In this document: piece after piece, positions 14,226-60,359 of the stretch
Layout: each line of letters begins with the position of its first letter
Numbering within the stretch: the first letter of the stretch is position 1
DNA from: Bdellovibrionales bacterium
GTDB taxonomy: Bacteria > Bdellovibrionota > UBA1018 > CAIMNF01
Direction of reading: 5' to 3'
DNA length: 64,000 nucleotides
Assembly: GCA_040380025.1 (NCBI GenBank)
Contig: JBEIJY010000002.1
Span: 73,660-137,659, forward strand
Position numbers and translations under genes: made by a program
The notes under the pieces: generated by a model
Told to the model about the DNA's origin: nothing
Databases searched by the model: none
The model's input: the letters and a program-made list of their open reading frames with translations, nothing else

Positions 14226-14377
14226 ATCGTTCGAACATTCTGGTGCACAGCCGGGCCCGAAGAGCGTCAAGAAAATATCTTTTCTTTTTTCTTTTTTCCT
14301 TGACCTGACGTCTGTAAGCTTATGAAGTAATACCATTCAACGCAGTAAAACTATTGTTTGTCAGGAAAGGGATTTTC

Positions 14378-15157
14378 ATGTCTCGGATTAATAAAATCGT
14401 CCTGTCTTTGTTTGCGTTTTCGACCTTGTTTTCGAGCCCCGCTTTCGCAGAATCATCAAAAATGCTCAATCAGAACGACTTCGTGGGAATCTCGTTTTGG
14501 ATGATCTCGATGGCTCTCGTGGCGGCAACCGCCTTCTTCTTTCTCGAAACCCAGCGGGTTGCGGGAAAGTGGAAGACCTCTCTCACCGTTTCTGGTCTGG
14601 TGACCCTGGTCGCTGCGACTCACTACTTCTACATGCGTGAAGTATGGGTTGAGACGGCAAGCACCCCGACCGTATACCGGTACATTGACTGGCTCATCAC
14701 GGTTCCCCTTCTGATCACCGAGTTCTATCTGATCCTTCGTGCGATCGGAAAGGCCTCTGCCGGAATCTTCTGGCGTCTGATCATCGGAACCACCGCGATG
14801 CTCGCCCTCGGATACATGGGCGAAGCCGGTTACATGGGCGTGTGGCCCGCATTCATCCTGAGCTGTCTTGCGTGGTTCTTCGTGATCTACGAAATCTACG
14901 CCGGAGAAGCAGGAAGAATCGGAACCACCCAGGCTCCTCCCGCAGTTCAATCAGCGTACCGCACCATGCGGACCATCGTGGTCTTCGGCTGGGCGGTTTA
15001 TCCGATCGGATACTTCGTCGGATACCTCACCGGTGCAAACCCTGCCGACAGCATGGGAACTCTGAACATCGTTTACAACTTTGCTGACGTTGTGAACAAA
15101 ATCGGCTTCGGCGTGATCATTTGGAACGTAGCCGTCACTTCGAGCGAATCGAACTGA
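14378..15157 (+). CDS. proteorhodopsin, green-tuned proton pump (DTE motif, Leu105, Schiff-base Lys)
   Basis: Signal peptide, seven TM helices, RYIDWLITVPLLITEFY (D97, T101, L105, E108 by PR numbering), His75 (ATHYFY) and NFADVVNKIGFG retinal-binding Lys. RBS AGGAAAGGG lies upstream of ATG 14378. Confidence 0.9.
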   Translation: MSRINKIVLSLFAFSTLFSSPAFAESSKMLNQNDFVGISFWMISMALVAATAFFFLETQRVAGKWKTSLTVSGLVTLVAATHYFYMREVWVETASTPTVYRYIDWLITVPLLITEFYLILRAIGKASAGIFWRLIIGTTAMLALGYMGEAGYMGVWPAFILSCLAWFFVIYEIYAGEAGRIGTTQAPPAVQSAYRTMRTIVVFGWAVYPIGYFVGYLTGANPADSMGTLNIVYNFADVVNKIGFGVIIWNVAVTSSESN

Positions 15158-15178
15158 TTCGAACAAAAATAAGGAAAA

Positions 15179-15209
15179 GCCCCGCGACCCTGTCGTGGGG
15201 CTTTTTTTT
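15179..15209 (+). terminator. rho-independent terminator after the opsin gene
   Basis: GCCCCGCGAC-CCT-GTCGTGGGGC hairpin (one G:U pair) followed by T8. Confidence 0.75.
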
Positions 15210-15215
15210 GACCTC

Positions 15216-17207
15216 ATGAAACACTTTGATGTCGTCATTGCGGGCGGCGGTCTTTCCGGAATGATCTGCGCCGACACCCTCGCGAATTCTCCGAACACCG
15301 AACTCCGCATCGCCATTGTGGATCCCGATCCCGCGAGCCTGAAATCGAGGACTTTCGCGAGCTGGACAAAAAAATCCGAGCCTCCTCATCGGTATTCCGG
15401 CCTGGTTTCGAAGCGATGGGATCGGTTCCGGGTCACCGACCCCCGCGGGAATCCGATCGAAAGATCATTCGAAGACTATTGCTACGAGTACGTATCGGGA
15501 GAGTCGCTTTTTGAGCATTGGAATCAAAAAATCAATGCTGATCCCCGCTTTCATCGCATCGATCAATCCGTCCGGACCATCACCGAGGAGCGAAATCCCG
15601 ACACTGGACAGATTCGTGCGGTGGTGGAGCTCAAGGACGGACGCATCCTTCATGCTGATCGGGTGTTGAGCTCTCCCGCGCGCCATCCGGGAGCGGTTCA
15701 ACAAAGCTTTTTCGGGCTCGAGATCGAAACGACCGAGGAGTTCTTCGATCCGGATGTGGTGGATCTCATGGATTTTCGCTTCGAGCAAAAAGGCGAGGTC
15801 CGGTTTGTGTATCGCTTGCCCCTGAGCAAGACCCGCGCACTGGTCGAGTTCACGGTCTTTTCGGCAAGCGATGTTTCCAGAACAGACTGCGAGGCGGGAC
15901 TGCAAGAGTATCTTTCTCGATTGCTGGGGCTCCCTTCGTATTCCGTGCTCCGGACCGAATCCGGGATCATTCCGATGGGCGTGGACCCGGAGCCTTTTTT
16001 CCCCCCTTCGTTTCGAAGCCAGGTGATGGAATCGATCGGAGGAGCGGGAGGAAGAATCAAGGCCAGCACGGGATACTCCTTTCGGCGGAATCTGGAGCAC
16101 CCGGAAGCGGGGACGAGCGCGGGATCTGCGCGCTTCCGGTTCCGGATGTATGATGTGCTACTGCTCGGGATGATTCGACAAAACGGCGGCGTGGTCGCCG
16201 GCGTCTTTGCCCGATTGTTCGCACGAAACCGACCGGGAGCGGTGTTTTCGTTTCTGGACGAAAAATCGCGACCCTTGGACGAGGCCAGGATTTTCTGGTC
16301 CCTGCCTTGGACGCCTTTTTTGCGACAGTTGTTGCTGGAGTATCCTTTTCTTTTTGCCGCAATGGCAACTCTTTTGCTTCAGCATGCGATCGGAGGATTC
16401 GCCGGCTGGATCGTGCCCCTTTCGGGTCTGCTCATTACGGGCGTTCCCCATGGGAGTGTCGATCATTTGCTGAATCCAGCCCAAAAAAACAGACTTTCCT
16501 TCACGCTTCGCTATCTCATAGGAATGGCGCTTTATCTTCTCGCCTGGTGGTTTGCGCCTCTTCTGACCTTCTTGTTCTTTCTTTGGCAGTCGGCCGATCA
16601 CTTCGGCGAGGCATATTGGATTCGCGCGATCCGCGCGTCCAAGAATGATCCCCTGGTTCGCGGACTGGTCTGGCTCTGGGGCCTGTTCGCGGCCGGATTC
16701 AGTGTTTTGTTTCATTGGGAAGAGGCGATGCCGATCGTGATCGGCATCGTGGGCGATCAGGAGTGGATCCGAACACTCCCGGACTCGCGGGCTGGGTTTC
16801 TCTCGCTCGTTCTTTTTGGAATGGCCTTCATTGCGGCCCATTTGCTCGATCGCTATGAGCGCAGGTCCAGGGGGCGGCCCCCGAGCGGTGCTCCGGCCAC
16901 GCTTCTTCTCGGGGCTGTGCTCATGATGCTTCCTCTTTTACCGGGCTTTCTTTGTTTCTTTGCGTTCTGGCATGGCTGGGATTCGATCCGGGCCCAGCGG
17001 GAGCGCATGGGGTGGAGCGTGGGCGATTACGTTCGGAAGGCGTTGCCACTCTCGGTGGTTTCATGGGCCGGAATCTTTGGCTTGATTTGGTGGTTCGACG
17101 GGCTGATTTGGAAGGTCTTTTTTATCGCGATCGGCGCTCTCACCGCGGCCCACGTGCCCGCAATGAAGCGATTTTTACTTTCACGACCAACAGAAGAGCG
17201 GGGATGA
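15216..17207 (+). CDS. crtY-blh: lycopene beta-cyclase (CrtY/CrtL-type, FAD) fused in frame to Brp/Blh beta-carotene 15,15'-dioxygenase
   Basis: N-terminal VVIAGGGLSGM dinucleotide motif, ESGIIPMG and GGAGGRIKASTGYSF cyclase motifs. The C-terminal 290 aa form a multi-TM domain with conserved His motifs (PHGSVDHL, SADHFGE, HWEE, FWHGWDS) typical of Blh. Confidence 0.85.
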   Translation: MKHFDVVIAGGGLSGMICADTLANSPNTELRIAIVDPDPASLKSRTFASWTKKSEPPHRYSGLVSKRWDRFRVTDPRGNPIERSFEDYCYEYVSGESLFEHWNQKINADPRFHRIDQSVRTITEERNPDTGQIRAVVELKDGRILHADRVLSSPARHPGAVQQSFFGLEIETTEEFFDPDVVDLMDFRFEQKGEVRFVYRLPLSKTRALVEFTVFSASDVSRTDCEAGLQEYLSRLLGLPSYSVLRTESGIIPMGVDPEPFFPPSFRSQVMESIGGAGGRIKASTGYSFRRNLEHPEAGTSAGSARFRFRMYDVLLLGMIRQNGGVVAGVFARLFARNRPGAVFSFLDEKSRPLDEARIFWSLPWTPFLRQLLLEYPFLFAAMATLLLQHAIGGFAGWIVPLSGLLITGVPHGSVDHLLNPAQKNRLSFTLRYLIGMALYLLAWWFAPLLTFLFFLWQSADHFGEAYWIRAIRASKNDPLVRGLVWLWGLFAAGFSVLFHWEEAMPIVIGIVGDQEWIRTLPDSRAGFLSLVLFGMAFIAAHLLDRYERRSRGRPPSGAPATLLLGAVLMMLPLLPGFLCFFAFWHGWDSIRAQRERMGWSVGDYVRKALPLSVVSWAGIFGLIWWFDGLIWKVFFIAIGALTAAHVPAMKRFLLSRPTEERG

Positions 17208-18030
17208 AGAGCAGGATTTTTCGAGTGGTCGGGACCACGGTCCGGTTCCGGAATGCTGTTTTCGGGTCACTCGCCGCGGTCTTCAGCAATTCGTGACCGA
17301 TTTGCTGATAGAGTTTTCCGGCGAAGGCGATCGCCACGGCCGTCCGAAGGGGCAAAAATGCAATCCCCCGAAAGCCCTCGTCATACCAACGGTCAGCAAG
17401 ACGCAACAACGACCGCACCGCCGGGAGCGCTCGCTCAGGTTCGTGTGCCAGCTCGCGTGCCAAGTCGTGAGCCCCTAGCCCCGGCATGAGATCAGCCGGA
17501 ATGTACACTCGGCCGATCCGGGCATCGGCTTGGATGTCGCGCGCAATGTTCGTGAGCTGCATTGCCTTTCCGAGCGCGGCGGCCGGAGCCGGCGCCCGGA
17601 TCGGATCGGCACCGATCACGGGGCACATCATGAGTCCCACGACTCCGGCCACACGAAAGCAGTACTGTTCGAGTTCCGAAACGGTCGCATAGCGCGTGTC
17701 TTCGAGATCCATCCGGAACCCCGCGAGGAATTCCGCCCGGTGCGCGGGATCGACCCAGGCGGGAGGGCTGAAAGGAGAGTTTGCGTCGGTAGCGCACTCG
17801 ATTTCTTGAAGCCCGCGCAGCGCAGCGGAGCGGTCAGGGGCCTCGTCGATTCGATCATCACAGTTTCGGCACCACTGATACAGCCGAAGTGCATCGTGGC
17901 GCGTGGAGCGCGGCAAAAAAAATGAAGCGAGGGCAAAGCTTTTCGATCCTTGCCGGATCACCTCCTCGGGCGAAATCGCGGGGTGAGGTCTAGGATGCGG
18001 TCGAGGGTGCTCGTCTGGCGCGGCCGTCAT
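17140..18030 (-). CDS. crtB: phytoene synthase
   Basis: Squalene/phytoene synthase family with DxxxD-type substrate-binding motifs (YCFRVAGVVG, NIARDI). The start abuts the crtI stop. Confidence 0.85.
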   Translation of the reverse strand: MTAAPDEHPRPHPRPHPAISPEEVIRQGSKSFALASFFLPRSTRHDALRLYQWCRNCDDRIDEAPDRSAALRGLQEIECATDANSPFSPPAWVDPAHRAEFLAGFRMDLEDTRYATVSELEQYCFRVAGVVGLMMCPVIGADPIRAPAPAAALGKAMQLTNIARDIQADARIGRVYIPADLMPGLGAHDLARELAHEPERALPAVRSLLRLADRWYDEGFRGIAFLPLRTAVAIAFAGKLYQQIGHELLKTAASDPKTAFRNRTVVPTTRKILLFIPALLLVVKVKIASLRARGPR

Positions 18031-19554
18031 TCAGGCCTGCGCCTCGAATCGGGCCGATCGAATGTCGTCCAAGAGCAGATTCGCGGTCGCTTTTGCGGAA
18101 TTCACGACTCCCGGAACCCCTGCCCCGGGATGCGTGCCGGCGCCGACAAAATAGAGACCCTTCAGGTCGGGGTCGCGATTTCGGGTGCGGAACGCAGCAC
18201 TTTGCCAAAGGACGGGTTCGGCCGAGAAGGCCGCACCCAGATGTGAGTTCAGCTCGTCCCGGAAATCCTCAGGCGTGAAGATGCGCTGGGTGACGATGTG
18301 CTTTCGCAAATCGGGAGCGTAGCGGGTCTCGATGTACTCGAGGATTTTCTCGGCATAGGCGGGGCCCTCTTTCTTCCAGTCGATCTTGAGGTTTCCGAGA
18401 TGGGGAACGGGCGAAAGAACATAAAACGCCTCACATCCCTCGGGGGCCATCGACGGGTCCGAGCGGGTGGGGGCATGAAGATAGAGCGAGAAATCATCGG
18501 GGATTTCGTCATTCTTGCTGAAGATTTTTTTCAGGAGCTCGCGGTAGGATTTTCCGAACAGAATATTGTGATGGGCGAGTTTCGGATATTGCTTGCTTGT
18601 CCCGAAGTAAATCAAGAAGAGGGACATGCTCTGGGATTGCCGGAGCGCTTTCTGGCGCGAGGGGCGGACTTGTTCGGAGTTTCGAAGAAGGTGCGAGTAA
18701 CTGTGAACCACATCGGCGTTCGTGACGACGATGTCGCAGGGCCAGGTCCCCTGATGCGTGCGAACCGCCGAAACGCTCGAGCCATGGGTCAAAATCTCAT
18801 CGACGGGAGTCGAGAGCTCGATTCTTCCCCCAAGTTCCTGAAACAACCGCACAAGAGCGTTCACGAGTGCGCCGGTTCCTCCGCGCGGAAAGAACACGCC
18901 CCAGTTTCGTTCGAGGTAATGAATCAGGGTGTAAATCGAGGAGGTCTTGAAGGGGTCGCCGCCCACTAGCAACGAATGAAAACTGAATGCCTGGCGAAGC
19001 TCACGGTCTTCGATGTATTGCGAGACCGTCTTGAAGACCGAGCGGTGAGCCTTCAGATTCACAAGCTGGGGTGCAACCCGCACCATGCTCCAGAGATTCA
19101 AAAACGGAACATGGGCGAGCTTGGTGTAGCCCTCATCGAAGACATTCTTCGAGTAGTTCAGGAACCGCTCATAGCCTTCGACGTCGCGCGGGGACTTCGA
19201 CTGGATCTGCTCGAAGGTCGTCTTCGGATCGTTCGAGTAGTCGAAGACATAGCCGTTCTCCCAAAAGAGCCGATAAAACGGGCTCACGGGCATGAGCTCG
19301 ACGTAGTCTTCCATCTTCCGGCCCGCCTCTTCGAACAACTCCTTCAGGCACTCAGGCGCGGTGATCACAGTGGGACCAGCATCGAAAACAAAGCCCTTGT
19401 CCCGGTACACATAGGCCCTGCCGCCAGGCTGGTCTCGCTTTTCGAAGAGCACCACTTCGTGTCCGGCCGTTTGCAGGCGCACGGCGGCGGCCAGTCCCGC
19501 AAAGCCACTGCCGATGACGGCGATTCTTTTTTTGTTCCTGATTTTTTCAGCCAT
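18031..19554 (-). CDS. crtI: phytoene desaturase
   Basis: IAVIGSGFAGLAAA FAD motif. Full-length CrtI-like amine-oxidase fold. Confidence 0.9.
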   Translation of the reverse strand: MAEKIRNKKRIAVIGSGFAGLAAAVRLQTAGHEVVLFEKRDQPGGRAYVYRDKGFVFDAGPTVITAPECLKELFEEAGRKMEDYVELMPVSPFYRLFWENGYVFDYSNDPKTTFEQIQSKSPRDVEGYERFLNYSKNVFDEGYTKLAHVPFLNLWSMVRVAPQLVNLKAHRSVFKTVSQYIEDRELRQAFSFHSLLVGGDPFKTSSIYTLIHYLERNWGVFFPRGGTGALVNALVRLFQELGGRIELSTPVDEILTHGSSVSAVRTHQGTWPCDIVVTNADVVHSYSHLLRNSEQVRPSRQKALRQSQSMSLFLIYFGTSKQYPKLAHHNILFGKSYRELLKKIFSKNDEIPDDFSLYLHAPTRSDPSMAPEGCEAFYVLSPVPHLGNLKIDWKKEGPAYAEKILEYIETRYAPDLRKHIVTQRIFTPEDFRDELNSHLGAAFSAEPVLWQSAAFRTRNRDPDLKGLYFVGAGTHPGAGVPGVVNSAKATANLLLDDIRSARFEAQA

Positions 19555-20644
19555 GCGAATTCATCACCTTTCTTGCCATTTCTTCGATCGGGTTCAGAGC
19601 CGGGTTCCCGGCGAATCGATCTTTGAGTCCTCTCAGACACGAATCCATCGCCTCGCAGGCTTGCGCAAGCGCCACCGCGATCACCGGATGGGTCGTCCGC
19701 GGATCGTCTTCGCCTTTTTGGATGGTTCGGGACATCAGGGCCTGGAATTTTGTGAACTCATGGGGTTCGAGCGTTGTCGCCGCAACCGCCCACACCCAGG
19801 ACGGACGAATGAAGGGCCCTCTCGGGGTGTCCGATTTGCCCGATTCGCGAAACTCGGCCAGGTCATTGAACATTTGCAACAAGACCCCGAACGACTGACC
19901 GAAATCGGCAATCGTGCGACGAAGGTCCGAATGGGCAGAGGCGGCGACGGCTCCGAATTCGGCGCACATCCTCATGAGGGCGCCGGTTTTCAGGCCCAGC
20001 GTTGCCATCGAGATTGGAGTGATTTTCGCTTGGGGCAGAAAGGTCATGTCATGAGCGAGATCGAGCGACTGACCATAGTGAGCTTGAATCATGGCGTGAT
20101 GATGAACCCGATAGAGCTCGAGCTCGATTTCAGCCGGGATTTTTTGAGACCGGATCAGGTCGGTCGCGCGGTAGTAGAGCCAGTTGCCGGCATTGATGGC
20201 AGAGGGCATGCCGATCAGGGCGTGCAGGGCAGGGCCGCCTCTTCGAGTCATGCTTGAGTCCTGAATGTCATCGATGATCAGGGATCCGGCATGGATCGTC
20301 TCGACCATGGCACCGAGAGAAGAGAGCAAGTCCTCGTGCTCCTTGTCTCGGACCGCTGAACCCGAGGCGAGATCAAACCCGATCGAGACCAACTGAGCCC
20401 GGACCTGTTTGCTCGGCCGGTCCAAGTATTCGTTCAGGGGGTCGAGCATGGGTGCGAGCAAAGGGGGAAGAGCTTCTTTTGGCGCGACTCCCAGCGGGAG
20501 CCATTCCCGCAAAAAAGCCAAGTCGTCCGGGCCCGGGAGGATCATCTGCGACAAAGTACGCGGTTGGTCCGACCTCGCGGGCGGGGATGTTCTGAATGGT
20601 TCCTGGATTTCTCTTCGATTCGTCAGTTCACGAAACTCGTTCAC
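19547..20644 (-). CDS. crtE: polyprenyl (geranylgeranyl) diphosphate synthase family
   Basis: First aspartate-rich motif LIIDDIQD. The second motif is degenerate (FNDLAEF). It overlaps the crtI start by 8 nt. The true start may be the internal ATG (MILPGPDD) near 20545. Confidence 0.75.
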   Translation of the reverse strand: MNEFRELTNRREIQEPFRTSPPARSDQPRTLSQMILPGPDDLAFLREWLPLGVAPKEALPPLLAPMLDPLNEYLDRPSKQVRAQLVSIGFDLASGSAVRDKEHEDLLSSLGAMVETIHAGSLIIDDIQDSSMTRRGGPALHALIGMPSAINAGNWLYYRATDLIRSQKIPAEIELELYRVHHHAMIQAHYGQSLDLAHDMTFLPQAKITPISMATLGLKTGALMRMCAEFGAVAASAHSDLRRTIADFGQSFGVLLQMFNDLAEFRESGKSDTPRGPFIRPSWVWAVAATTLEPHEFTKFQALMSRTIQKGEDDPRTTHPVIAVALAQACEAMDSCLRGLKDRFAGNPALNPIEEMARKVMNSHG

Positions 20645-35840: not shown

Positions 35841-35958
35841 GCCCTCATTGGAGCAGAAAACATACCCTGCGACAAGCGATGCAAACTGCCCCCTTCATCG
35901 AGCACAATCAAAGGGGGCAGTTTTCAAGCCGTGGGGGGATGTGATAAATCGACCGAAG

Positions 35959-37008
35959 ATGCACGAGACGATTCTCATAACTGGAGCGGCCGGATACATC
36001 GGTTCTCATTTCGCCGAGGCCCTGATCGCAGCTCCGGAATGGACCCGAAAAAATCCGAAGCTCGTTTTTTTGGATGACCTGAGCTCGGGGCATCTGGAGT
36101 TTCTGCAAGAGCTGTCGGCCCTCGCCGTCGGTGCCGGAATGACGGAACCCGTCTTTGAGCGCGTCTCTCTTCAGGATGCCGAGGGGGTGCGGACAGCCCT
36201 GCTTCGTCATCGTCCCGCTGCGGTCGTGCATTTCGCCGCGAAGATCTCGGTCGCAGAATCGGTGCAAAATCCGGATCTTTATTTTTTGAACAACGTCGAG
36301 GGGTCAAAGAACCTGCTCTCGGCCATGCGGGAATCGAATTGCAAGAGGATGATTTTTTCGAGTACGGCTGCGGTGTACGGCGCGGTTGAAGATCCGGTCC
36401 GGGCAACCGGTCCCTTGTCCGAGGAAACCTCCCTCGCTCCGATCAATCCCTACGGCGAGACCAAGCTCAAAATGGAGCAAGAGATCGCCCGCGCCGGGGC
36501 GGAGTGGGGGCTTCGCAGTGTGGTCTTTCGGTACTTCAATGCGGCCGGCGCATCGGCCTCGGGACGTTTCGGAGAATGGCATGAGCCTGAGACGCATTTG
36601 ATCCCGCTTCTTTTGCGCTCCATCGAATCGGGCAAGGCCCTCTCGGTTTTTGGGAATGATTATCCGACCCGCGATGGAACCTGCATCCGGGATTACATTC
36701 ATGTGTCGGATCTGGCGAGCGCGCACCTTCTCGGGCTCATGCGGCTTTTGGTCGAGGAAGCCTTTGCGGGCGGAACGTTCAACCTGGGCACCGAGACGGG
36801 CACCTCGGTACTTGAGGTAATTCATGCGGCCGAGCAGATCACCAAAAAGCGCGTGCCCTACGAGCTCAAAGACCGCCGAGCAGGTGACTCACCCGTGCTC
36901 GTCGCGGACTCCTCGCGGGCCCGCAAGGTTTTGGGATGGGTCCCCGTGCATTCCGGCATCGACATGATTGTTCGAACCGCATGGGACTGGGAGCAGAGAA
37001 AGAGTTGA
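35959..37008 (+). CDS. galE: UDP-glucose 4-epimerase
   Basis: ITGAAGYIGSH Rossmann motif, YFNAAGA, and catalytic YxxxK region. ATG 35959 is preferred over the longer track start, which runs antisense through the lipoprotein gene. Confidence 0.85.
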   Translation: MHETILITGAAGYIGSHFAEALIAAPEWTRKNPKLVFLDDLSSGHLEFLQELSALAVGAGMTEPVFERVSLQDAEGVRTALLRHRPAAVVHFAAKISVAESVQNPDLYFLNNVEGSKNLLSAMRESNCKRMIFSSTAAVYGAVEDPVRATGPLSEETSLAPINPYGETKLKMEQEIARAGAEWGLRSVVFRYFNAAGASASGRFGEWHEPETHLIPLLLRSIESGKALSVFGNDYPTRDGTCIRDYIHVSDLASAHLLGLMRLLVEEAFAGGTFNLGTETGTSVLEVIHAAEQITKKRVPYELKDRRAGDSPVLVADSSRARKVLGWVPVHSGIDMIVRTAWDWEQRKS

Positions 37009-37011
37009 TTC

Positions 37012-37410
37012 CTATTTCGATGCTTTGAATGCGTCCGCAAGGATCTGGTTTGCCTTCGGGCCGCATTCCTGGATTTCTTGATAGGGAACCGTGCTTCCGT
37101 CGGCTTGATATTGAATGTCTTTGATCACCCGGGCGAATTTGGTTCCGCTTGGAACCAATGCCTGGATGACGTCCGACGCAAAGTATCCGATGGTGTCTAC
37201 GTCAATTCCCGTCCGAAGTTGCTTTCCGATCGATTCCTTCGAACCAACCACGATCACGGGATCGGTCGAGTGGCTCGGATTGCGGATTTCGATCTCGGAA
37301 CCTCCGTTCACCAGAGAAATCTGAAAGGGTCCGCAAAGCGAATCTTCAGAAGTCTGGGCGTGGGAGGGAGTCTGAACCAGGGCAAGAGACAGAAGAAATG
37401 CGGTAATCAT
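37012..37410 (-). CDS. small secreted hypothetical protein (132 aa)
   Basis: Signal peptide MITAFLLSLALVQTPSHA. Convergent with galE. Confidence 0.5.
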   Translation of the reverse strand: MITAFLLSLALVQTPSHAQTSEDSLCGPFQISLVNGGSEIEIRNPSHSTDPVIVVGSKESIGKQLRTGIDVDTIGYFASDVIQALVPSGTKFARVIKDIQYQADGSTVPYQEIQECGPKANQILADAFKASK

Positions 37411-37504
37411 GAGCAGATTTGTACACTACTGCTTGCAGGCTGTCGAGAAAAACTGACACAATGCAAAATCCTGACAAACACTCGCTGGACTCAGAGCTTC
37501 AAGA

Positions 37505-37705
37505 AAATTGAGCCCTTTGAGAGTTCCTGATCAGTACGGTGTTTCGGGAAAGGGGCTGGGGAACAAAAAAGTTTTGCCGAAACACGCGAGCCACGAAGGC
37601 GAAAGCGAGGCCGGAGGACCCGGCTCGGAGGCAAAAACCTTTTTGTTTCCCAGCCCCTTTCCCAAACCACGGTACTGGGTCAAGCACACTCAAAGGGCTC
37701 AGTTT
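37505..37705. repeat. about 200-bp imperfect palindromic element, copy 1 (39-nt conserved core at 37598..37636, reverse orientation)
   Basis: Nested inverted repeats: TTGAGCCCTTTGAGAG with CACTCAAAGGGCTCAG, and GGGAAAGGGGCTGGG with CCCAGCCCCTTTCCC, plus others. The core GGCGAAAGCGAGGCCGGAGGACCCGGCTCGGAGGCAAAA is the exact reverse complement of 40901..40939. Confidence 0.8.
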
Positions 37706-37802
37706 TCGCTTCACGCGGGGGATCTACTTCATTTGGAGAGCATTTTCGTTGCAATTCGGGTGGGTTTTTTCTATTGTGCGCCGCAGAACGGTGAGGAGTT
37801 TT

Positions 37803-38360
37803 ATGAAAAATCCATTTTTTTCGTTGGCGTTGATCGGAATCGTAGCCCTTTCTCAGTCGGGAGCGGCCTTGGCCGATCCACAGGACCGCGAAAACCGGGC
37901 GCGAATCACTCTGAAGGTGATCGAAACCGACGCCGAAGGGCACACCCGTACTCATAAAATCGGAAAGCGTTCCAAGGTTCTGTTTTCGAAGACCCCGAAG
38001 GGAACCGTTCGATTGGCGGTTGACCCCGCGTGGGGCCTGACGGTGTTGGATCGGGTCGAGCCTGATTTCCAGCCCGGTGCATGGTCGATCAAGGGGCATC
38101 TTCCGCAATTGGTCATTGCCAAGCTGATCGAGCAGTCCTGCGACGTGGAGTGCCAGAGCGAGTATCTCTCCGTTCAGAATAAAATCGCCGAGCTGAAGGC
38201 AAGCACCGGATTTTCGGATTACTTTTATGCCGGAGCATTCGAGGTTTCGGGCCCGACCATGGGCTATCTCGACGATTCCAGCGAATTCGAGCTGAAGTAT
38301 CGGCTTTCAGAAGGAACCGAGCTCGTGGTCCGCGTGGACCTTCGTCGCTGGTGGCGCTAA
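37803..38360 (+). CDS. secreted hypothetical protein (185 aa)
   Basis: GGTGAGGAG RBS, ATG 37803 and signal peptide MKNPFFSLALIGIVALSQSGAALA. The longer track ORF starts inside the palindromic element. Confidence 0.55.
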   Translation: MKNPFFSLALIGIVALSQSGAALADPQDRENRARITLKVIETDAEGHTRTHKIGKRSKVLFSKTPKGTVRLAVDPAWGLTVLDRVEPDFQPGAWSIKGHLPQLVIAKLIEQSCDVECQSEYLSVQNKIAELKASTGFSDYFYAGAFEVSGPTMGYLDDSSEFELKYRLSEGTELVVRVDLRRWWR

Positions 38361-38394
38361 CCGCTCAAACCGGGCGGATTCGAACCATTCCACC

Positions 38395-40767
38395 TTACCA
38401 ATAGGGCACCGTCCGGTAGAACACCGAGGTGTCGAATCTTTGGGATGCCCCGAAGCCCCATTCCGAGGCCCGCTGGCTGAATCCCATGGTCATGAACAGC
38501 GTCTCATCGGCGAGGAGCTTCGCGCTCAGTTTCCGTTCGAGCGGGTCAGGGGAGTTCGGATCGAGAGTGATCGAATTCAAACCCTCTTTGAACTTCAGAT
38601 GCCGGTTGTAGACGATCACCTCGATCGCATCTTTTTTGTGTCGTCTCGACATCGGCTGAATCCGAAAGTACAAAAACTCCGGCGTTTTGCTCAAATTGAA
38701 GTGAATCACGGTTCTTCCAAGCGCATCACGCGAAGAATAGAACGACCGCACGAGGGCCTCGGGGTCTTGCGCGGTCCGTTCGGTCTCGGTTCCCATTCCC
38801 ATCGATTGCGACGAGATCCGGAGCGTGTTTTCCATCGCGGTCGGCGTGTGCCCGCGCACCTGGATGTTCCCGAAGGCCGGATTCTGCGCCACCAAGAACC
38901 GTTCATAGGTGCCGTTCGGGAGTCCCTCCATCAGCAGAATCGGATACAACTCCGAACGCCCCTGATTGGCAAAAAGACGCGTGAGTGCCGCATGTTCGGC
39001 CTGTGCATCCCCGCGAAGAAAAGCTTCGCGCGCCTCCTCGAACCAGCGTTGCTTGAGTCTCAGGCCGAGTCCCTTTGCACGGCGGTCGATTTCTTCCCAC
39101 GGGGTCTCGAGGAAGCGCCGGAGGCCCGAGAGCTTGAAGGTCATTCCGAAGTAAAACGAGCTTCTTCCGTAAAACAGTCGTCTTCCCAGTTTTTTTCCCG
39201 GAGCGGGCGGCGCCCGGCGGGGAAATCGCGGAAAAATCCCTTTCAGTCCCAAATCGGTTTCGACCCGTCCCACGTACCGGTTCAGCGAGGCGGCCATGGT
39301 GTAAGAGTCATCGATGGAGTTCTCGGACATCAGCACGAACGAGTCCTCGAGCTTCTCGCGGAACGCCTGATCATCGATCAGAATCGAGGTGCGATGGGTG
39401 ACGCGTTCCCCGCTTCCGACAAAATCGTATTCCCGCGAGCGGGACTTCACGGACTGAAAAAATCGCTTCTCTCCGTCCGGGAGTTCGATCTCGGTCGTGA
39501 TTTTTTGCGAGCCCCGCGCGACACTGAACCGGATCACCGGGCTTGCACGCCCGCTGAATTCGGCGTTGTGGAGGTGCCGGTCGGTTTTTCGGCGGTACAA
39601 CCGCTCGACCGGAGGTCGCCCTTCTTCGGGTATCATCGCAGAGAGCTCGCTTGACCGGATGAACGAGCCCAGCACCGCACGATGATACGCATCCCTTCCC
39701 TCGGGCGACTCGAGATCGTAGCGGTATCCGACATCGAGGCCGATCTCGCGCGCATTGGTCGCCGTGAACTGAAACGGCGTGATGGTGGGGCTCAGGCGTC
39801 CCACGGTGGTTTCGATGCTCGAACCTTTGAACAGAACAAATCCTTGAAATACCCCCGGAAAGCCAAGTCTTGTTCCCGCCGTGACCTTGAGCTGATCGCC
39901 CTTCAGGCGGCTGATCCGGACTTTCGCGTAGCGATCGTCTTCTTTCATGATCGCGATCTGGTAACTGCCCGTAAAATGGAACTCCACGCCGACTCCCGCG
40001 TAGCCCTCGATCAGGGGTACGGGCGACACATTCCAGCCGAAATCCCCCCCGAAGCCCGCGGTGCCCGAGACGGTGTAGCTGATGATCTCGTTCTTCTTCA
40101 TGCGCTTCTTCACGCAGTTCGCATGAAAGGGGATTTTGAAGGGGAGCTTTACGAGATTCAACACATCCCGGAGCTTTACCCGCATCGCCGCATCGAGCGG
40201 ACTGGAGTTCAGGTACGGGTTCAGGTCTTCGATGTCGGCCTCGTCGCCCGGGCCCGCGTTCTCGAAATCGAGGGCCTCCTTGGTGCGGGCTTTTTCGGGG
40301 CTCATCTGCCGGATGTTCCGGATCTCGAATGAGCCATCGACCCCGAGGCGCATTCCGCCCACGGGGAACTGCAGAACCTGATCGGGAATCCGCTCGGGGG
40401 GGCCCACGGTCAGGTCCGCGCCGACGATGCGCGAAGCGAGGCGGATCGAGAACGAGTCGATCACCGTCCAGGTGTTCAGGGTGTCGTAGTTGTTGAAGAT
40501 GTTGCGTCCGATGCGGACCGCGCCCGAGCCGATTCCGGGAATGTCGCTGTCATACAGGGGAATCGAGGTGTTTCCGTCGAAGAGGGCGTTCACGATCCGG
40601 TATTCGAGGGCTTCGCCCCGGGTCATCGAGGATTGGTAGAACTCCTCGGGCCAGGGTCTTGGCTGGAAGTCGAAGCCCGGCGGAGGAGGGCGCGGCACTT
40701 CGATTTGTGCGAGCGCGATCCCCGGCATGGCCAGCAATGCCGCAAAGAAAATGCGAAGCAAATTCAC
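38395..40767 (-). CDS. large secreted hypothetical protein (790 aa)
   Basis: Signal peptide MNLLRIFFAALLAMPGIALA. No recognisable family. The antisense ORFs across it are Arg-rich artefacts. Confidence 0.65.
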   Translation of the reverse strand: MNLLRIFFAALLAMPGIALAQIEVPRPPPPGFDFQPRPWPEEFYQSSMTRGEALEYRIVNALFDGNTSIPLYDSDIPGIGSGAVRIGRNIFNNYDTLNTWTVIDSFSIRLASRIVGADLTVGPPERIPDQVLQFPVGGMRLGVDGSFEIRNIRQMSPEKARTKEALDFENAGPGDEADIEDLNPYLNSSPLDAAMRVKLRDVLNLVKLPFKIPFHANCVKKRMKKNEIISYTVSGTAGFGGDFGWNVSPVPLIEGYAGVGVEFHFTGSYQIAIMKEDDRYAKVRISRLKGDQLKVTAGTRLGFPGVFQGFVLFKGSSIETTVGRLSPTITPFQFTATNAREIGLDVGYRYDLESPEGRDAYHRAVLGSFIRSSELSAMIPEEGRPPVERLYRRKTDRHLHNAEFSGRASPVIRFSVARGSQKITTEIELPDGEKRFFQSVKSRSREYDFVGSGERVTHRTSILIDDQAFREKLEDSFVLMSENSIDDSYTMAASLNRYVGRVETDLGLKGIFPRFPRRAPPAPGKKLGRRLFYGRSSFYFGMTFKLSGLRRFLETPWEEIDRRAKGLGLRLKQRWFEEAREAFLRGDAQAEHAALTRLFANQGRSELYPILLMEGLPNGTYERFLVAQNPAFGNIQVRGHTPTAMENTLRISSQSMGMGTETERTAQDPEALVRSFYSSRDALGRTVIHFNLSKTPEFLYFRIQPMSRRHKKDAIEVIVYNRHLKFKEGLNSITLDPNSPDPLERKLSAKLLADETLFMTMGFSQRASEWGFGASQRFDTSVFYRTVPYW

Positions 40768-40836
40768 CCTCCCGAATGAACGATCCCGACAGCACCGTAA
40801 ACCGGATTGATGTACCGAGTCGAGGGATTTTCAAAA

Positions 40837-41027
40837 CTGCTCCATTTGATTGCGCCTCATTTGGAATTTGGGTTGAGAATGCACCCGAACAGAAAAACGA
40901 TTTTGCCTCCGAGCCGGGTCCTCCGGCCTCGCTTTCGCCATCCTGGCTCGCGAGAGTCGGCAAACTCCTTTTTCTGCCCGGGTACATTCTCAACCCAAGT
41001 TCCGATGGGCACAATCAAATGGGGCAG
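40837..41027. repeat. about 190-bp imperfect palindromic element, copy 2 (conserved core 40901..40939)
   Basis: Left arm CTGCTCCATTTGATTGCGCCTCATTTGGAATTTGGGTTGAGAATG is almost the exact reverse complement of right arm CATTCTCAACCCAAGTTCCGATGGGCACAATCAAATGGGGCAG. The core TTTTGCCTCCGAGCCGGGTCCTCCGGCCTCGCTTTCGCC is shared with copy 1. Confidence 0.8.
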
Positions 41028-41046
41028 TTTGTGGTATACGGCCTCG

Positions 41047-42003
41047 ATGGAATTTCAAATCCTGATGACCAATCTCACGAATCCGACTCTTTTGTTTTTT
41101 GTTCTCGGTGCCTTTGCGGCACTCGTAAAGAGCGATCTCGAGATCCCTCCCCACACGATCAAGTTCATCTCGCTCTATTTGTTGTTCTCGATCGGATTCC
41201 GAGGCGGGCAGGAGCTCGCGCACAGCGGCTTCACCACCGAGGTCCTGCTGGCCCTCGGCTTTGGCGTCGTGCTGGCGACCGTGATTCCGATTTTCTTGTT
41301 TTTTGCGCTCAAAAGACGATTCTCGGTGGCCGATGCCGGCGCCATTGCCGCCACCTACGGATCGGTGAGCGCCGTGACCTTCGTGGCCGCGAACTCGTTT
41401 TTGGAGTTTCAGGGTCTCCATGCCGGGGGGCACATGGTGGCAGTCATGGCCGCGATGGAGGCTCCCGCGATCATCGTCGGGGTTTCGCTGATCAGCTGGT
41501 ACGACCGGAGTACGCCGGTGTCGTTCAAGACGGTGCTTCATCACTCGCTCACGAACGGGAGCATCCTGATGGTGGTGGGGAGCCTCGTGATCGGTCTGAT
41601 TGCCGATGCCAAGCAGGCCGAGGGGATCCGGCCGTTCGCTTCAGATATCTTCAAGGGGTTTCTTGCGATCTTTCTGCTCGAGATGGGCATGGTCACCGTG
41701 AACCGGATCCGGACCTTTCTGCGCTATGGACCAGTGGCCTCGATCATCTCGACCGTGGTGCCGCTCTTGAACGGGGGCGTGGTCGCGTACGTGAGCCAAT
41801 GGGTCACGGCCGATCCGGCGAACCGGTTTATGTTCTCGATTCTCGCCGCGAGCGGGTCTTACATTGCGGTTCCGGCCACCCTCCGGCTCGCGGTCCCGAA
41901 GGCCGATCCAGGCCTGTACATTCCGATGGCGCTCGGAATCACCTTCCCGGTGAACCTTACGATCGGAATGCCGTTTTATTTTTGGATCGTGCACCGTCTC
42001 TAG
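41047..42003 (+). CDS. SbtA-like (DUF897) sodium-dependent bicarbonate-transporter-family permease
   Basis: About ten TM helices with two internal repeats, typical of the SbtA family. The ATG at 41047 follows the palindromic element. Confidence 0.7.
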   Translation: MEFQILMTNLTNPTLLFFVLGAFAALVKSDLEIPPHTIKFISLYLLFSIGFRGGQELAHSGFTTEVLLALGFGVVLATVIPIFLFFALKRRFSVADAGAIAATYGSVSAVTFVAANSFLEFQGLHAGGHMVAVMAAMEAPAIIVGVSLISWYDRSTPVSFKTVLHHSLTNGSILMVVGSLVIGLIADAKQAEGIRPFASDIFKGFLAIFLLEMGMVTVNRIRTFLRYGPVASIISTVVPLLNGGVVAYVSQWVTADPANRFMFSILAASGSYIAVPATLRLAVPKADPGLYIPMALGITFPVNLTIGMPFYFWIVHRL

Positions 42004-42248
42004 GTTTAAAGGCCGATAAATTCGATCTGATAATCAAAGTTGATTCACGAATAAAAAAACTAAAGGTTTCTGAACTCATGCCGAAAGGAAGGTGTCTGAG
42101 CTGGAGGTGCTTTGGTGGGTACTCAAAGGCTCGGGCACTTGACTGGGGGCCGTTCCACTTTTTGAAACGAAGGAACCAAGACTGAGGTGGTTCCGACGGG
42201 TACAGCGAGGTGGTGACGGCTCCTTTTTTTTTCGCTAGTCTCAGATCC

Positions 42249-60271: not shown

Positions 60272-60297
60272 CTTTTGCAGGATACTCGATTATTCCC

Positions 60298-60339
60298 CTG
60301 TGGAGTAGCGGATTATCATGATTATCCGCTACTCCACAG
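60298..60339. promoter_or_regulatory. 42-bp near-perfect palindrome 27 nt upstream of the AAA+ ATPase start
   Basis: CTGTGGAGTAGCGGA-TTATCATGATTA-TCCGCTACTCCACAG has 15-bp perfect arms. No U-tract follows on the transcribed strand. Confidence 0.5.
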
Positions 60340-60359
60340 AGGATGGTTATGGTTTGGAG

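Follow-up and report, generated by a model that had tools for sequence, protein, structure and literature searches.

By the window we mean the whole stretch of DNA analysed, 64,000 nt in length. Two of its intergenic spacers hold long palindromic elements, called here W1 and W2. The first lies between the divergent ORFs 37410<-37012 and 37803->38360, whose N-termini both look like signal peptides when judged by eye, so that the placement originally proposed for it, a divergent intergenic region between secreted-protein genes, stands. The second also separates divergent genes, that of a 790-aa orphan protein (start 40767, minus strand) and that of an Sbt_1 transporter (start 41044, plus strand). 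We call canonical the strand reading GAAAGCGAGG, which is the plus strand in W1 and the minus strand in W2. The features of the two loci are the following:

37503-37707, canonical strand plus: W1, full palindromic element of 205 nt (repeat finder, folding)
40834-41030, canonical strand minus: W2, full palindromic element of 197 nt (repeat finder, folding)
37598-37636, plus strand: stretch of 39 nt identical to 40901-40939 on the minus strand (exact match)
37495-37500, with partner at 37709-37714, no strand assigned: possible direct repeat GCTTCA flanking W1 (weak, read from the sequence)

The Sbt_1 start codon at 41044 is only 13 nt from the end of W2, so the promoter or the 5' UTR of this gene must overlap the element; by eye, TGGTATACG at 41029-41037 is like an extended -10 positioned for a leaderless mRNA.

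The repeat finder resolved W1 into nested arms, at 37503-37530/37680-37707 (86% complementary) and, inside these, at 37532-37575/37634-37677 (89% complementary), which enclose a central unit. Folded as RNA, the plus strand of W1 reaches -123 kcal/mol, against -69 +/- 4.5 kcal/mol in dinucleotide shuffles (z = -12), and folded as DNA it reaches -67 kcal/mol (z = -11.5), while the W2 hairpin, folded within 40820-41050, reaches -137.6 kcal/mol (z = -14). Repeat finder and folding thus agree on the extended imperfect hairpin with nested inverted repeats that the original prediction had placed at 37505-37705, the true span being two bases wider on each side. Overall, the arms are 85% self-complementary in W1 and 84% in W2, and the canonical strands of both elements fold alike, into a stem of about 70 bp which carries at its tip a three-way junction of 64 nt. 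Part of this tip is the 39-mer GGCGAAAGCGAGGCCGGAGGACCCGGCTCGGAGGCAAAA, found exactly at 37598-37636 on the plus strand and at 40901-40939 on the minus strand; its recurrence in inverted orientation had been predicted, and no such match is expected by chance (100 shuffles).

Beyond this exact string, the whole tip of the hairpin is conserved and constitutes what we call the core. Its two copies in the window are:

37573-37636, plus strand: W1 core, three-way junction of 64 nt with helices P1, P2a/P2b and P3 (covariance model, covariation)
40901-40964, minus strand: W2 core, 92% identical to the W1 core (covariance model, sequence identity)

They score 76 bits (37570-37640) and 80 bits (40897-40967) with the covariance model, and across the core-bearing members of the family described below the length of the core stays between 62 and 68 nt. 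Helix P1 is formed by UUUGCC/GGCAAA and prolonged by an apparent tandem G.A/A.G in CCGAC/GGAGG; P2a is formed by CUCGC/GCGAG with a GA/GAAA internal loop, and P2b is a small variable hairpin of which the members show four versions. The third helix, P3, is a hairpin of 5 bp, GCCGG-AGGAC-CCGGC in the window copies, which the members show in three versions, all of them fully paired (GCCGG/CCGGC, GCGGC/GCCGC and GAAC/GUUC), and which has GGA in every loop. Constant or almost constant among the unpaired nucleotides are CGAC, GA/GAAA, GGA in the loop of P3 and the stretch GGAGG. In the helices, 90% of the cells are paired, against 35-55% when the partners are slid by 1-3 columns, and 11 of the 22 pairs are altered on both sides, against 3.4 +/- 1.5 in shuffles; this covariation rests on eight sequences in an alignment fitted to the covariance model. 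CUCGCGA...GAAA has some likeness to a hammerhead ribozyme, but on inspection by eye we rejected this reading, as the segment lies in a helix and has neither the catalytic G5 nor A6.

Syntenic contigs from lake metagenomes were reached through homologues of the 790-aa orphan protein, and among them L006 carries a homologous 197-nt hairpin (L006a) the same distance upstream of its homologous 790-aa gene. A relaxed pattern built from three members gave, in a metagenome scan, three new matches in JGI sample Ga0214923 (L010, L011 and L012), and a covariance model of the core recovered all six and added L006b (15.5 bits) and L015a (36.5 bits). In about 215 kb of relevant sequence, the family comprises at least 8 core-bearing members in 5 contigs, six of them lying outside the window in related metagenome contigs, and 3 coreless relatives. 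The core is therefore not restricted to the two window loci, since other loci carry hairpins with the same core, and the idea of a nested palindromic family with a common core holds. No copy was detected in L007, L008, L009, L013 and L014 (about 68 kb of relatives). The family is real but patchy.

The pattern GCGAGGCCGGNNNNNCCGGCTCGGAGGC matched five times in species-representative genomes, always by chance, inside coding sequences of unrelated high-GC genomes, and a metagenome scan with an exact 22-mer returned no match; counting copies by core pattern, as had been proposed, hence produced chance matches in the species-representative genomes and three members through the relaxed metagenome pattern. 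Scans of viral contigs and BLAST against plasmids and phages gave no match to the elements. With Rfam 15 at permissive thresholds, no family matched the elements: the only matches were to microRNA-precursor hairpins (28.6 bits, against a gathering score of 140), the remaining weak ones fall outside the elements, and none fall on the short members. A literature search found no description of such an element, and the novelty claimed for the family is upheld: it appears to be undescribed.

That these palindromes were made by an assembler is extremely improbable. Assemblers have a general tendency to mis-join at inverted repeats, and nothing else speaks for a chimeric artefact; homologous hairpins with the same core are present in independent samples, assemblies and pipelines (ENA GROS21 scaffolds and JGI Ga0214923 contigs, among them L006, L015 and L010-L012), and the copies differ from each other by compensatory substitutions.

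Three aspects of the family were missed in the original prediction: the arms differ between copies, the termini are conserved, and the window holds a third copy, at 35880-35926. Stem length varies from 17 to 75 bp among the core-bearing elements (17 bp in L012, about 70 bp in W1). Within copies, the arms are 68-100% self-complementary. Between the copies of about 200 bp, arm identity is 41-58%, for a shuffled baseline of 41-45%, and pairs involving shorter copies lie at this baseline; even the arms of W1 and W2 are only 56-58% identical. The sole stretch that stands out in the comparison of long copies is the base of the hairpin, where the elements of about 200 bp from the clade of the window have common termini AAACT[C/G]CCCC...GGGG[C/G]AGTTT. 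These termini were found in W2, the 47-nt copy, L006a, L006b, L015a and L015b, and in a diverged form in W1; they were not seen in the short members L010-L012. The core, with 59-95% identity between copies (eight core-bearing members), is conserved far above the arms and also above the termini. It is also separable from the termini, being present in short hairpins that do not have them (L010-L012), and the termini occur without core in L015b. Since the two parts occur apart, the core is not obviously needed for movement; its separability, its conservation above that of the termini and the intact cores of W2 and L006a at the same site together suggest that it is under selection of its own.

How can arms which do not resemble each other between copies remain complementary within each copy? 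Independent decay of a palindromic ancestor would be expected to leave in W1 and W2 a complementarity of roughly 0.6, against the 0.85 found, which means that the arms co-evolve: possibly pairing is selected, or one arm is repeatedly copied from the other. In E. coli, template-switch correction of quasipalindromes is an established DNA-level mechanism (compare PMC7202029). By analogy, such correction would keep the arms paired without any selection. The count of wobble pairs shows no strand bias, either in the arms (20 G.T mismatches versus 17 A.C, the latter becoming G.U when the opposite strand is read) or in the core (4 versus 4), and fits a DNA-level route of arm evolution.

Among related genomes, sites have gained or lost an element or hold a decayed one. 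All copies are non-coding, with sizes from 47 to 210 bp, and strictly intergenic, in unrelated contexts and in either orientation. The third copy in the window is:

35880-35926, minus strand: third family member, internally deleted derivative of 47 nt without core (repeat finder, alignment to W2)

This copy keeps both termini, AAACTGCCCCC...GGGGGCAGTTT, and contains 22 nt which match the 5' arm of W2 at 21/22 positions, and the derivative is for this reason recent. Between the AmpG-like and RDD genes, L015 has an element of 197 bp where the window, L006 and L007 show an empty spacer of 33-74 nt. Full elements precede the 790-aa gene in the window and in L006; at this site the right-end remnant cattcttcaAGGGGAGTT is all that is found in L007, and no element was recognised in L008, which has a G-run of doubtful homology. 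Decay is visible in L015a and L006b, with eroded arms (68-72% complementary) and weak cores (36.5 and 15.5 bits). Filled, empty and remnant sites, common termini, a deletion derivative and decay are the behaviour of a non-autonomous mobile element. Several of the features by which MITEs are recognised are found as well: the elements are small and non-coding, have terminal inverted repeats common to different loci and show insertion polymorphism; flanking target-site duplications are not among them, none being consistent: the candidates are limited to TAAC at L015a, which is ambiguous, and to the possible GCTTCA repeat of W1. Genes for a transposase, an integrase or a reverse transcriptase were found neither in the 38 window ORFs scanned nor in about 130 kb of related loci, and the same stretches showed no autonomous insertion sequence with matching termini. 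One site upstream of the 790-aa gene is filled by W2 in the window and by L006a in L006, although the proteins of the two genomes are only about 64% identical, and both elements have intact hairpins and cores; their persistence looks like maintenance in place, through a host-level function or conversion, and not like the neutral decay of a selfish insert.

A second type of element accompanies the first. It has the same termini as the first, over 20-27 nt (AAACTCCCCCCGATCATTGGGTACGAG), and its interior is non-palindromic and without core. It was observed at L015 8233-8407 (L015b), which is the position occupied in L006 by the core-bearing L006b, and at L008 13630-13701, where the start of an L015b-like element coincides with the end of the contig.

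The elements also affect annotation. The peptide GESEAGGPGSEAK occurs in ORFs 37508-37957 (plus) and 40550-41014 (minus), two unrelated long ORFs; it had been considered spurious, rightly so, because the core is non-coding: its members differ by indels of 1-2 nt, which break the frame and rule out a coding core. Spurious ORFs run through elements or their remnants at 37508-37957, 37539-38360 and 40550-41014 of the window (149, 273 and 154 aa in this order), and public gene calls do so at L015 4176-4370 (a 64-aa call), L007 9228-9371 and L006 10001-10183. In L006, the homologue of the 790-aa protein has received a false N-terminal extension of about 60 codons. As the elements yield such spurious ORFs and extensions, masking them is advisable in annotation.

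The region around W1 and W2 is a hypervariable island among relatives, extending from an epimerase gene to a glyoxalase gene (35998-42210 in the window, compared with L006, L007, L009 and L015). The window has there the 132-aa, 185-aa and 790-aa orphan genes and Sbt_1; in L006 there are in addition OprB, a Big_1 protein of 1102 aa and a chemotaxis cluster, and L015 has an SLT-domain protein instead. Palindromic elements lie at the junctions of the island, and they may for that reason take part in the gain and loss of genes there. Upstream of the gene for the glyoxalase/methylmalonyl-CoA-epimerase-like protein, four diverged genomes share a block of about 135 nt with an identity of about 90%:

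window 42088-42225 (plus), L006 4875-5012 (minus), L007 7950-8090 (minus), L015 8448-8590 (plus): conserved block of about 135 nt

This block folds into two stems, with many G-U pairs on the strand given, and in L007 and L015 a terminator-like run of nine T comes after the second stem; it has no Rfam match, and a role as attenuator, riboswitch or sRNA is possible. Elsewhere in the window, a near-perfect palindrome of 50 bp (60294-60343; 25-nt arms without spacer, 92% complementary) lies between the genes of a DUF4143 AAA-ATPase and of an M28 peptidase. At 14354-20644 a rhodopsin gene adjoins those of a lycopene cyclase/Blh fusion, phytoene synthase, phytoene desaturase and polyprenyl synthase, and the host is probably a light-harvesting freshwater bacterium. 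Finally, in L013 (8957-13276) the Sbt_1 gene is found inside the str operon, between the genes of ribosomal protein S7 and EF-G.

Among the roles first suggested for the element was that of a cis-regulatory RNA of secreted-protein genes. Such a leader would keep its place and direction within the 5' UTRs of homologous genes, and this was not observed. The core is reversed before the same 790-aa gene in L006 (L006a) relative to the window (W2), at a distance of about 60 nt in the former and 66 nt in the latter, and at this site L007 keeps a remnant and L008 nothing recognisable; the opposite orientations mean either that recombination between the element's own arms has flipped the core or that the site has been re-used. 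Between element and 790-aa gene, moreover, a conserved block CTCGACT...CGGTTTA intervenes in three genomes. Other copies lie beside unrelated genes: in a convergent spacer that follows the gene of an RND pump, between unrelated genes of one direction or, for L015a, antisense to both neighbours. Orientation, intervening block and unrelated neighbours led us to reject a dedicated 5'-UTR regulator of secreted-protein genes. For a free-standing sRNA gene, also suggested, there is no support either, scans having detected no sigma-70-like promoter and no intrinsic terminator at W1 or W2. Folding of both strands confirmed a strong hairpin and gave the advantage to the canonical strand in 6/6 members tested, a difference that comes mainly from the core, yet wobble pairs, which test the point more directly, show no strand bias. 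Nothing favours RNA over DNA.

The explanation that we prefer, and to which we give about an even chance of being right, is that of a MITE-like non-autonomous palindromic element in which arm-to-arm copying keeps the arms paired and a selected core is recognised as a folded single strand. An enzyme acting in trans would move the elements. Their arms would be kept complementary at the DNA level, the likely routes being intramolecular gene conversion or a template switch like that of quasipalindrome correction. Selection would act on the core, to which a protein partner, either the mobilising enzyme or a host factor, would bind when it is folded as a single strand; the strand recognised could be single-stranded DNA during replication or transposition, or RNA upon read-through from neighbouring transcription. 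Recombination between the element's own arms could flip the core relative to the flanking genes. Of the four options initially offered, that of a MITE or REP-like element is the best supported, by filled, empty and remnant sites, termini, derivative and decay. Against mobility stand the scans of 38 window ORFs and of some 130 kb of relatives, in which no transposase, integrase or reverse transcriptase gene was found, the lack of a consistent target-site duplication, the members L010-L012 without termini together with some termini-bearing elements without core, and the intact state of W2 and L006a at one site in spite of only about 64% protein identity.

Alternatively, the family could be one of structured non-coding RNAs, sRNA genes or modules embedded in UTRs, in which the three-way junction would be the functional RNA. 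Its core could be, for example, protein- or ribosome-binding, displaying GGA and GGAGG (UCC and CCUCC on the other strand), and its long stem only a scaffold or a signal for processing by RNase III. We regard this as a possible but doubtful account, which remains a rival of the mobile element. The covarying helices and the conserved unpaired CGAC, GA/GAAA, GGA loop and GGAGG argue for it, as do the better folding of the canonical strand in 6/6 members, the recurrence of one core within unrelated stems and in shells with and without conserved termini, the intact cores that two diverged genomes keep at a site which looks ancestral, and the canonical strand ending 39-155 nt upstream of a start codon in five copies. 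It is opposed by the lack of wobble-pair strand bias in arms and core, of sigma-70-like promoters and intrinsic terminators at both window copies and of any Rfam match, by orientations as inconsistent as those of L015a, antisense to both flanks, and of W2 and L006a, opposite before the same gene, and by the decay or internal deletion of some copies. A REP/BIME-like structural element, domesticated by the host at the DNA or mRNA level and no longer mobile, seems improbable to us. It could serve, for instance, as a stabiliser of mRNA ends, an insulator between divergent promoters or a binding site for nucleoid or topology proteins, and the strictly intergenic copies, often between divergent or convergent genes, the persistence upstream of the 790-aa gene across diverged genomes and the location at junctions of the hypervariable island are what one would expect of it. 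The size is wrong, however (about 200 nt versus 20-40 nt for REP), conservation lies in the tip instead of the arms, the filled and empty site and a deletion derivative that is near-identical argue for recent movement, and the decay of several copies implies that they are not uniformly maintained.

The opposite orientations of W2 and L006a at similar distances (66 and about 60 nt) also bring to mind an invertible switch, in which recombination between the element's own arms flips the 60-bp core and redirects a directional signal between two divergent genes; 3/8 core-bearing copies do lie between such genes. We consider this very unlikely, as the scans gave neither a promoter or other directional signal in the core nor a recombinase gene in its vicinity, copies are found in convergent spacers where switching makes no sense, and a single difference of orientation between species equally represents a rare inversion or a re-insertion. 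More speculative than the MITE-like element, and in our opinion not very probable, is the following idea: the three-way junction would be a new functional module of RNA or single-stranded DNA which binds a protein or the ribosome through its invariant GGA loop and GGAGG, rides on palindromic mobile shells and outlives them, their arms being kept paired by arm-to-arm copying, and can be flipped between two divergent genes. If this were true, the family would be a cargo-carrying bacterial MITE spreading a regulatory module around the genome. Should the core have a binding partner, then what the mobile shell spreads in this uncultured freshwater lineage with rhodopsin would be a new motif of RNA or single-stranded DNA.

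Compared with known systems, the apparently undescribed family is built in an unusual way, its structured tip being conserved and its arms free to vary. Its core recalls the CsrA/RsmA sites of CsrB/RsmZ-type RNAs: P3 has a short stem with a loop of AGGAC, AGGAG or AGGAU, two copies have AGGA as their P2b loop and the GGAGG stretch adjoins P1. Judged by eye, the GGA loop and GGAGG resemble CsrA-type sites or a Shine-Dalgarno sequence, while the complement shows CCUCC and UCC. Unlike CsrB/RsmZ-type RNAs, each element has only 2-3 GGA motifs and no terminator, and the CsrB/Rsm models of Rfam do not match it. Retron non-coding RNA was rejected, no RT domain being present among the neighbours of any copy. 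Integron attC sites are also imperfect variable palindromes, act as a folded single strand and border variable gene cassettes. They keep only the outer R boxes (RYYYAAC/GTTRRRY) around a variable centre, whereas here the centre is conserved and there is neither an integrase nor a co-oriented cassette array; we rejected this assignment because pairing stops at AAC/GTT with the outer four positions unpaired, so that the R boxes do not fit, and because of the missing integrase.

REP, BIME and REPIN sequences are closer in some respects, being interspersed extragenic palindromes without target-site duplication for which, as we propose here, a folded single strand is recognised, and REPINs form long hairpins too. 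A REP is a sequence of 20-40 nt with a conserved 5' tetranucleotide, and REPINs are REP doublets mobilised by RAYT (Y1 HUH) transposases; no RAYT gene was seen in the 64-kb window. In REPINs the arms are conserved and the loop is variable, and here it is the reverse: the identity of arms between copies is at the shuffled baseline while the loop, our core, is conserved, and for this reason we rejected REP or REPIN. The hairpin-forming MITEs of bacteria, such as Correia/CREE in Neisseria, ERIC/IRU in enterobacteria, RUP in Streptococcus pneumoniae and Nezha in cyanobacteria, resemble our elements more: they are non-coding and intergenic, measure 100-200 bp, have terminal inverted repeats and several copies per genome, and share with them presence/absence polymorphism, deletion derivatives and spurious ORFs from gene callers. 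For our elements, neither a consistent target-site duplication nor, in the sequence covered, a parent insertion sequence was found. Copies of a known MITE family are alike from end to end, with conservation at the termini; in our elements the arms have no more than random similarity between copies and the tip is most conserved, which inverts the usual pattern of interspersed palindromes. The family in this way separates two processes that are usually confounded, namely the arm-to-arm upkeep of a hairpin and purifying selection on a small structured module.
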